Sequence record: PQ510734.1
Direction: 5' to 3' (one strand)
Length of the DNA: 64,000 bases
DNA from: Escherichia phage A6-6
Position numbers and translations under genes: made by a program. The notes below the pieces were generated by a model. The model searched no databases. It was not told the DNA's origin and saw only the letters and a list, made by a program, of their open reading frames with translations. Each line of letters starts with the position of its first letter. Position 1 is the first letter of the stretch. Shown in pieces: positions 16,797-17,381 of this stretch.

Positions 16797-16826
16797 TTAG
16801 CCCCGACCGAAAGGTTGGGGCTTTTT
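16797..16826 (+). terminator. Intrinsic terminator (copy 1 of an identical 30-bp element)
   Basis: CTTAGCCCCGACCGAAAGGTTGGGGCTTTTT: GC stem with GAAA loop and T-run. Confidence 0.6.
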
Positions 16827-16872
16827 AGTATAAATAAGTATATTAAAACCACGAATTAAAACAGGAAATAAG

Positions 16873-17346
16873 ATGAAATCATATGCTCAATTTTTAAATG
16901 AAGCGGTGTTAAATGAAGCATCTAGCACCGAAATTCAAGCTGTCGCAAAAGCAGCCATTGCCGCGGGTAAATATTCCTATAAAGATGCTTCCGATGAATC
17001 ACGATTCCAATTTGCTCGTGATATGAAAGCCGAAGGATTTACAGGGAATGCAGTTAGTATGGCTTGGAAAAGTTTAGTTGCTACTGGAGCTGCTTTTGCA
17101 AAGGCTTCAGGTAAACCTGCTCCTAAGGCTGACCCTAAAGCAGCACAAGAAAAAAATATTGCTAAAGGAATTATCTCTAGGTATGAAGCAATTCTTAAAG
17201 AACTTTTGATAATTAAGACCGAAGGCCAGAAACTTGCGCGAGCTCATAGTTTCAAAGATAATCCACATGCTCATGACCTAGAGTATGTTGAAGACATCCA
17301 AAAAATTATTAAAGACCGCATTTGGTCTGCTAAACAAATCAAATAA
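16873..17346 (+). CDS. Internal-protein-like protein with capsid-targeting-sequence-like N-terminus
   Basis: 157-aa ORF MKSYAQFLNEAVLNEA...; N-terminus resembles the T4 IP CTS (MKTYQEFIAE) with LxE protease-site pattern; Ala/Lys-rich. Confidence 0.55.
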   Translation: MKSYAQFLNEAVLNEASSTEIQAVAKAAIAAGKYSYKDASDESRFQFARDMKAEGFTGNAVSMAWKSLVATGAAFAKASGKPAPKADPKAAQEKNIAKGIISRYEAILKELLIIKTEGQKLARAHSFKDNPHAHDLEYVEDIQKIIKDRIWSAKQIK

Positions 17347-17350
17347 CATT

Positions 17351-17381
17351 CTTAGCCCCGACCGAAAGGTTGGGGCTTTTT
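17351..17381 (+). terminator. Intrinsic terminator (copy 2 of the identical 30-bp element)
   Basis: Same CTTAGCCCCGACCGAAAGGTTGGGGCTTTTT sequence as at 16797. Confidence 0.6.

Follow-up and report, generated by a model that had tools for sequence, protein, structure and literature searches.

The open reading frame (ORF) of 157 aa at positions 16873–17346 of the plus strand (stop codon included), which starts with MKSYAQFLNEAVLNEA, encodes, with a probability that we put at roughly 0.7, an internal protein (IP) of the T4 type that is packaged, processed by the prohead protease gp21 and injected, its gene being a terminator-bounded module in the slot between rnaC and e.8. The window, i.e. the whole stretch of 64,000 nucleotides of Escherichia phage A6-6 (PQ510734.1) that was analysed, is a genome segment of the Tequatrovirus (T4-like) type, and a query of 1.5 kb around the cassette matched 778 phage records with a top identity of 99%. 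The ORF, whose coordinates and length had been given correctly in a preliminary description of this DNA, is assigned to phrog_2280 in PHROGs ('unknown function'). This family is probably an internal-protein family at a third locus, rnaC-e.8, as compared to the two loci of the accessible literature.

Gene order in the window, all on the plus strand, is 57B (13983–14438), trna.4, trna.3 and trna.2, a tRNA cluster (15464–16484), the counterparts of T4 rnaD and rnaC (about 16486–16749, by alignment with annotated T4), the 157-aa ORF, e.8 (17587–17850), e.6 to e.3, nudE (start at 20936), the lysozyme gene e and, downstream of it, two further ORFs bearing a similar leader (22011–22328 and 22345–22818). 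The preliminary description had placed the 157-aa ORF downstream of the tRNA cluster and outside the 57B-tRNA interval, and this holds: the gene follows the rnaD/rnaC region, its slot is rnaC-e.8, and the 57B-tRNA interval is empty in the window. It thereby lies outside both described IP loci (57B-trna.4 and e-denV), location at an IP locus being a usual but not a defining feature of IPs. At the empty classical ipI locus (14439–14508) the 57B stop codon is followed by 70 nt and then trna.4, with one early-promoter/stem-loop element (GTTTACA...TACTAT); in T4 two such elements enclose ipI, and in PST and ADUt this locus contains two IP genes. The tRNA cluster comprises 11 genes versus eight in T4, and the homing endonuclease gene segB is absent; ARAGORN calls a tRNA-Met(CAT) at 15962–16036, the place of the annotated T4 tRNA-Ile. 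The rnaD and rnaC counterparts (16486–16749) gave no match in Rfam at gathering thresholds, at which the tRNAs alone were detected, and a tRNA-like T-arm (GGTTCGAATCCCGG) is found inside rnaC. Between tRNA-Arg and rnaD an ORF of 114–117 aa (MKGNVYLVVHDLTFYF...) is present in ADUt (L002, 3102–3452), slur03, T2 and PhAPEC2 and is missing in the window. The approximately 365 additional bp of ADUt and slur03 were considered as a part of the cassette and rejected, as they constitute this unrelated 117-aa ORF upstream of rnaD.

How would such a protein reach the phage head? In T4 the first ten residues of IPIII suffice for packaging, that of foreign proteins included (Mullaney and Black 1996, as summarised in PMC9026906), and the same source assigns targeting by the IPIII capsid targeting sequence (CTS), MKTYQEFIAE, mainly to residues 4 and 7 and processing to residues 8 and 10, gp21 cutting after L/I-x-E. 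IPII has the same ten residues as IPIII, and IPI begins with MKTFKEFTST...ITE. The 157-aa ORF starts with a CTS-like propeptide, MKSYAQFLNE/AVLNE/A (16873–16917, plus strand), and therefore has Tyr4, Phe7, Leu8 and Glu10 and a second L-x-E at Glu15; of the two L-x-E sites for gp21, L8-N9-E10 and L13-N14-E15, each is followed by Ala. The similarity to the CTS of T4 internal proteins, with which the preliminary description had started, thus comprises all four positions that are critical in IPIII. When a rule was formulated that demands an aromatic residue at position 4, Phe at 7, Leu, Ile or Val at 8 and Glu at 10, it fitted only three of the 528 candidate starts with Met that are followed by at least 50 aa, counted over both strands of the whole window, namely the 157-aa ORF and the ORFs at 22011 and 22345, which are in the classical ipIII/ipII position. 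The ORF at 22345–22818 is IpIV, 157 aa in length, identical to the annotated IpIV of PST and a member of phrog_3155, 'internal virion protein'. The other, at 22011–22328, encodes 105 aa starting with MKTYKEFIAE, is found at the place of ipIII in T4 and belongs to phrog_3966, 'unknown function'; judged by its sequence, it is another IP-like protein that does not carry such a label in PHROGs.

The leader rule is kept by most of the distant relatives, and the aromatic residue at position 4 and Phe7 are present in nearly all relatives found. The leader reads MKSYAEFLTE in Mosigvirus, MKTYNEFLNESVLNE in JS98-like phages, MLEYSEFLKE in Yersinia phage fHe-Yen9-01 and MLKFNEFLAE, MINFSDFLNE or MKSFSSFLNE in metagenomic representatives; in Klebsiella phages it is MKFKEFLAE, one residue shorter and off register. 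Since the leader survives while the rest of the protein falls below 50% identity, it is under selection. In the favoured reading, Tyr4 and Phe7 would attach the precursor to the scaffolding core while the prohead is being assembled, and gp21 would then remove the leader by a cut behind Leu-Asn-Glu10, Leu-Asn-Glu15 or both. The mature protein would have 142–147 aa, a mass of 15.5–16.0 kDa and a pI of 9.4–9.6, would be all-helical by prediction, and would stay in the head with the DNA and enter the next host together with it. The predicted N-terminal peptides are AVLNEASSTEIQAVAK for a cut after E10 and ASSTEIQAVAK for a cut after E15; SYTQFLNEAVLNEASSTEIQAVAK is the peptide that would count against processing by gp21.

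Expression signals are consistent with a gene that is transcribed late. Two nucleotides past the U-tract of the upstream hairpin the T4 late-promoter consensus TATAAATA is found (16829–16836, plus strand), ending 36 nt before the ATG, and a ribosome binding site AGGAAA (16863–16868, plus strand) precedes the ATG by 4 nt; the same type of ribosome binding site is found in other IP genes (AAAGGAAAC). The octamer had to be rejected as significant by itself, as it occurs 12 times in the window versus 9.9 times expected and is no rarer than chance in this AT-rich DNA. What recurs is the arrangement. (T/A)ATAAATA follows the hairpin at a constant position in 20 of the 20 cassettes examined among the fetched loci, including that of Klebsiella phage KpV477 with its different hairpin sequence, always in the order hairpin, U-tract, (T/A)ATAAATA, 25–35 nt, AGGAAA-type ribosome binding site and ATG with leader. 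This conserved arrangement suggests a late transcription unit, with the tRNA/rnaC terminator as its left border and a second copy of that terminator, which belongs to the late unit itself, as its right border. No early-type promoter was found at either hairpin; the nearest one, TTTACA-17-TACTAT (17515–17543, plus strand), is that of the e.8 unit in the right conserved flank, about 135 nt downstream of the second hairpin. According to the proposed scheme, the small basic protein would be made late from the TATAAATA promoter directly after the tRNA/rnaC terminator.

Is the protein found in virions? The orthologue in phage fD1 (phiD1, HE956711) is g140/Gp140 with 157 aa and the N-terminus MKSYTQFLNEAVLNEA. 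It is marked as phage-particle-associated (PPAP) by LC-MS/MS of ultracentrifuge-purified virions, and its neighbour g139 (e.8) is without this mark (PMC8309999, Table S3). The list is permissive: of 277 phage proteins it contains 113, lysozyme, DenV and NudE among them, and in addition 672 host proteins (PMC8309999), and the detection of g140 therefore raises the odds only about two-fold. Also marked are g141, a hypothetical 202-aa ORF in the tRNA region that is present in slur03 too, e.5 and e.6 (PMC8309999). Either the fD1 preparation was dirty or the tRNA-e region encodes more virion-associated proteins than assumed. That this list also names clearly non-structural proteins would suit a quite different interpretation, in which the leader is a relic of descent from, or recombination with, IP genes and the protein is cytoplasmic, made late and never packaged. 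All database records examined call the protein hypothetical, and the literature search yielded no experiment on it, which would be consistent with such a relic. A relic would decay, however, and the four leader positions are the most persistent feature among relatives that are less than 50% identical elsewhere; moreover, a late-type promoter is found in every cassette examined, and in T4 a ten-residue CTS alone packages foreign proteins (PMC9026906). We therefore consider a relic very unlikely. The literature search by accession or ORF name gave no match for the family; the RB69 paper is silent on it, and the fPS-phage paper contains no proteome.

Homologues of the 157-aa ORF were found by tblastn in 511 phage records, and the names in 60 of these records sampled across the ranking and in the protein's cluster were all hypothetical, unnamed or equivalent, e.g. 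'Phage protein'. Searches of Pfam gave only sub-threshold noise and of NCBIfam no match. A profile search of 1.84 billion representative proteins retrieved 13 clusters, of which every named one is a phage protein, and no annotated domain; judging from these searches, the family is small. It is present in at least five genera, including Mosigvirus with ara-hmC DNA and the Klebsiella phages of Jiaodavirus. Comparison with the orthologue of Mosigvirus PhAPEC2 gave a dS of 1.2 and a dN of 0.13 and thus a dN/dS of 0.11, indicating that the ORF is under purifying selection, and members from different genera hardly differ in the C-terminal half. At the same slot proteins of 154/157, 187 and 205 aa are found with about 26% identity between these types. 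The 205-aa leader-bearing protein belongs to phrog_2280 as well and is 26% identical to the 157-aa ORF over the whole length. The 187-aa neighbour (RB69ORF149c type) is placed in phrog_2280 by PHROGs and is probably a paralogue, a grade chosen because pairwise BLAST matches the leader only. Some GenBank records (e.g. ADUt, WFG42069.1) annotate as a CDS an ORF of 41 aa (17285–17410), probably a spurious one, that overlaps the 3' end of the gene and crosses the second hairpin.

The precursor is small and basic with a pI of 9.40, and the mature form would have a pI of 9.44–9.55, as compared to 8.9–9.5 for IpI-III. An AlphaFold model from an alignment of eight sequences (pLDDT 77, pTM 0.47) predicts a disordered leader, a three-helix N-terminal domain (residues 18–71), a Pro/Ala/Lys linker and a C-terminal helical hairpin (88–154). 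Foldseek searches with this model found nothing below E = 1 in the PDB and only the phrog_2280 family itself in BFVD. A protein of this kind could also be packaged by its leader to serve the head itself, by neutralizing the charge of the DNA, by organizing it or in ejection, and not to counter host defence. Such a head function would go well with the distribution over five or more genera, the low dN/dS and nearly invariant C-terminal half, the Lys/Ala-rich composition and high pI and the modelled linker and long helical hairpin without an enzyme-like fold, as well as with the fact that lysines of T4 IPs contact DNA phosphates (PMC3012670). The relative conservation of the family, by which it differs from ipI, ipII and ipIII, is compatible with a housekeeping function in the head no less than with an effector in an arms race. 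Yet the gene is polymorphic among close relatives, being absent from T2, T4, T6 and PST and thus dispensable there; the different size types at one slot look like diversification, and all three T4 IPs of known function inhibit GmrSD enzymes (PMC12373910). On balance, a function in the head seems unlikely, though clearly less so than a relic leader.

The second part of the preferred reading, that of a packaged IP encoded by a terminator-bounded module, concerns the flanks of the gene. The preliminary description had reported two identical flanking repeats of 30 bp, the first one starting at 16797. There are indeed two exact copies, but the repeat is 31 nt long and the first copy starts at 16796. 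Copy 1 (16796–16826, stem 16799–16822) constitutes the left boundary of the cassette and copy 2 (17351–17381, stem 17354–17377) terminates the ORF and constitutes the right boundary, both on the plus strand. Each is an intrinsic terminator with a stem of 10 bp, a GAAA loop and U5, and a folding energy of about -20 kcal/mol (copy 1 -20.3; z-scores -3.3 and -4.7). Copy 1 is located about 50 nt after the rnaC region and therefore ends the tRNA/rnaD/rnaC transcription unit. In the 64-kb window CTTAGCCCCGACCGAAAGGTTGGGGCTTTTT occurs at exactly two sites, even when three mismatches are allowed, and shuffled sequences lead to an expectation of zero. A common terminator present at many unrelated sites, a possibility raised in the preliminary description, was not what was found: the exact 31-mer occurs at 514 places in 419 phage records, with at most two per record among the records listed, and the hairpin, which is confined to this locus, is thus not a general-purpose terminator scattered over genomes.

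Comparison with T4 (NC_000866) revealed that the window equals T4 plus 555 bp. T4 contains a single hairpin and no gene, and the flanks (left 97%, right about 95% identical) both end in this single hairpin. The indel unit, comprising late promoter, ORF and one terminator copy (16827–17381, plus strand), is also absent in T2, T6 and PST, and the sequence ...GCAAGGCTTAGCCCCGACCGAAAGGTTGGGGCTTTTTGGTATCTAGGCC... of T2 and T6 is the exact join of window position 16826 to 17382. Loci fetched for comparison provided further states of the rnaC-e.8 interval. It is empty with one hairpin in T4 and PST (268–278 bp), contains one cassette in the window, SA20RB, ADUt, slur03 and two IMG/VR contigs (813–837 bp) and two cassettes in PhAPEC2, L010, L011 and L017 (1447–1526 bp), where the 154/157-aa ORF is followed by the 187-aa ORF (MKTYAEFLTEAAK) with its own terminator. 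In JS98-like contigs the hairpin pair encloses a membrane-like ORF of 184 aa (phrog_2143) and the 205-aa leader-bearing ORF follows, and in L014 and L016 (about 1300 bp in L016) the pair encloses a leader-bearing ORF together with the 184-aa ORF. The cassette proposed in the preliminary description is thus borne out, as T4, T2, T6 and PST contain a single hairpin without the gene and the arrays of one or two cassettes break at the 3' ends of terminators. The third terminator of two-cassette genomes (CCCTATCTAAATGATAGGGCTTTTT) is followed by GGTATCTAGGCC, and the same sequence trails copy 2 of the window and the single copy of T4. It follows that whole modules, joined at ...GGGCTTTTT, are what distinguishes one state from another. 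The junctions are compatible with insertion as well as with deletion of a module. The 184-aa ORF, which has no leader, is found inside the same hairpin pair in JS98-like and related contigs, in L013/L015 at 2571–3217 and in L014 and L016 at about 3326–3880, and terminator-bounded slots are therefore not reserved for IP genes.

Are the hairpins substrates for recombination? In the favoured reading, modules of late promoter, ribosome binding site, leader-bearing ORF and terminator are gained, lost and stacked at terminators, and recombination or slippage between the identical 31-nt copies would lead to the empty state of T2, T4 and T6. Alternatively, the hairpins may be just two functional terminators, one copied once when the gene arrived, and the gene may spread by ordinary homologous recombination in the conserved flanks or by SegB-driven co-conversion of the tRNA region. 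Each hairpin is a good terminator by itself, the flanks of window and T4 are with 94–97% identity similar enough for ordinary exchange, and segB is found within about 1 kb in T4, T6, PST and SA20RB. However, the two copies also agree in the unpaired CTTA and in the loop, which a terminator would not require. Lineage-specific variants are usually common to both copies of a genome (GACC in Tequatrovirus, TTCC in Mosigvirus, GGCCC...GGGCC in JS98-like phages), indicating recent duplication or exchange between copies. Moreover, where the ORF187 module has been lost, two different terminators are fused precisely at their common GGGCTTTTT, the same hairpin pair brackets the unrelated 184-aa gene in JS98-like phages, and among the T4 deletions in a set that Mosig mapped, about one half involved GGGC/GCCC motifs (PMC2839356). 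Spread without participation of the hairpins is therefore doubtful, although it deserves more weight than a function in the head or a relic leader.

What could an injected protein of this family do? Ip1, Ip2 and Ip3 disarm distinct GmrSD enzymes, while none of ip4-10 interacted reproducibly with any of the GmrSD variants in the tests (PMC12373910). As Ip1, Ip2 and Ip3 each inhibit one GmrSD-type enzyme, an early role against host defence would by analogy be the leading guess for the 157-aa protein. Its occurrence across different DNA modifications and the conserved C-terminal half would fit a more general role equally well. A bolder version holds that phrog_2280 is a widely conserved, head-packaged and injected family at a third IP locus, that its target is a general early barrier or host function, and that the flanking element is the late-gene counterpart of the PeSL elements. 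In that version the target would be no GmrSD variant, since the family is found with glucosyl-hmC, arabinosyl-hmC and other DNA and the C-terminal half is conserved, and the terminator-plus-late-promoter element would build arrays of injected-protein genes. The odds are clearly against this version as a whole, only slightly less unfavourable than those of a function in the head.

If the protein is an injected IP, as we favour, recognition of the family would correct the annotation in about 500 sequenced phages, many of them phage-therapy isolates, and injected families are possible host-range determinants of therapeutic T4-like phages. Injected proteins act before phage gene expression, and each new family is therefore a candidate first-strike anti-defence factor. 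Screens of two loci would gain a third one, with a gene that can be deleted or transplanted and with T4 as natural null, and the modular terminator/late-promoter junctions provide a testable substrate for the stacking and shedding of such genes in T-even phages. The finding offers anti-defence screens a well-defined starting point and would mend the annotation of about 500 genomes, but it is no new principle; that IP genes are shuffled by way of the regulatory elements at their flanks was already known in 1994 (Repoila 1994, as cited in PMC2839356). There, Repoila et al. (1994) are cited for polymorphic IP loci with ORFs that have a common leader and conserved flanking regulatory elements, and more than 30 IP variants are mentioned with reference to Comeau 2007 (Arbiol, PMC2839356). 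Silas et al. (2025) speak of 'the two Ip loci' (PMC12373910). The accessible literature, in which Repoila 1994 and Comeau 2007 are represented by citation and not by the originals, contained no mention of phrog_2280 as IP, of rnaC-e.8 as IP locus or of a terminator-plus-late-promoter flank. The site is empty in T2, T4 and T6, which would explain why classical T-even biochemistry never met the protein.

In comparison with T4 IPI-III and IpIV-IpX of T-even phages, the 157-aa protein has the same kind of leader, MK[ST][YF]x[EQ]F[IL]xE with an L/I-x-E site for gp21, and like these proteins it is small, basic and non-essential, has an AGGAAA-type ribosome binding site, varies in presence and is flanked by repeated regulatory elements. 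It differs from them in that its mature part resembles neither IpI-VI nor the 105-aa IP of the window, it belongs to phrog_2280 as compared to phrog_3155 for IpIV, and its gene is located in the rnaC-e.8 interval outside the two loci of the accessible literature, flanked by G+C-rich terminators and a late promoter in contrast to the early-promoter/AT-rich stem-loops of the classical IPs; moreover, conservation of the phrog_2280 family reaches further than that of the classical IPs. The flanks resemble the promoter-early stem-loop (PeSL) elements, mobile regulatory cassettes of T4-type phages (Arbiol 2010; Comeau 2014), in that small accessory ORFs are enclosed by short conserved stem-loop elements, at which the indels between close relatives begin and end, but the element of the cassette consists of a terminator and a late promoter with no early promoter, and only the terminator is duplicated. 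From Ip1-3, the injected inhibitors of GmrSD type IV restriction enzymes (Bair 2007; PMC12373910), the 157-aa protein differs in that it shares no sequence or detectable fold with them; moreover, phrog_2280 extends to phages whose DNA carries other modifications, and T4, which was used in the tests, has no member of it. What it would have in common with these inhibitors is the predicted route of delivery and a place in the same variable accessory set of Tequatrovirus.
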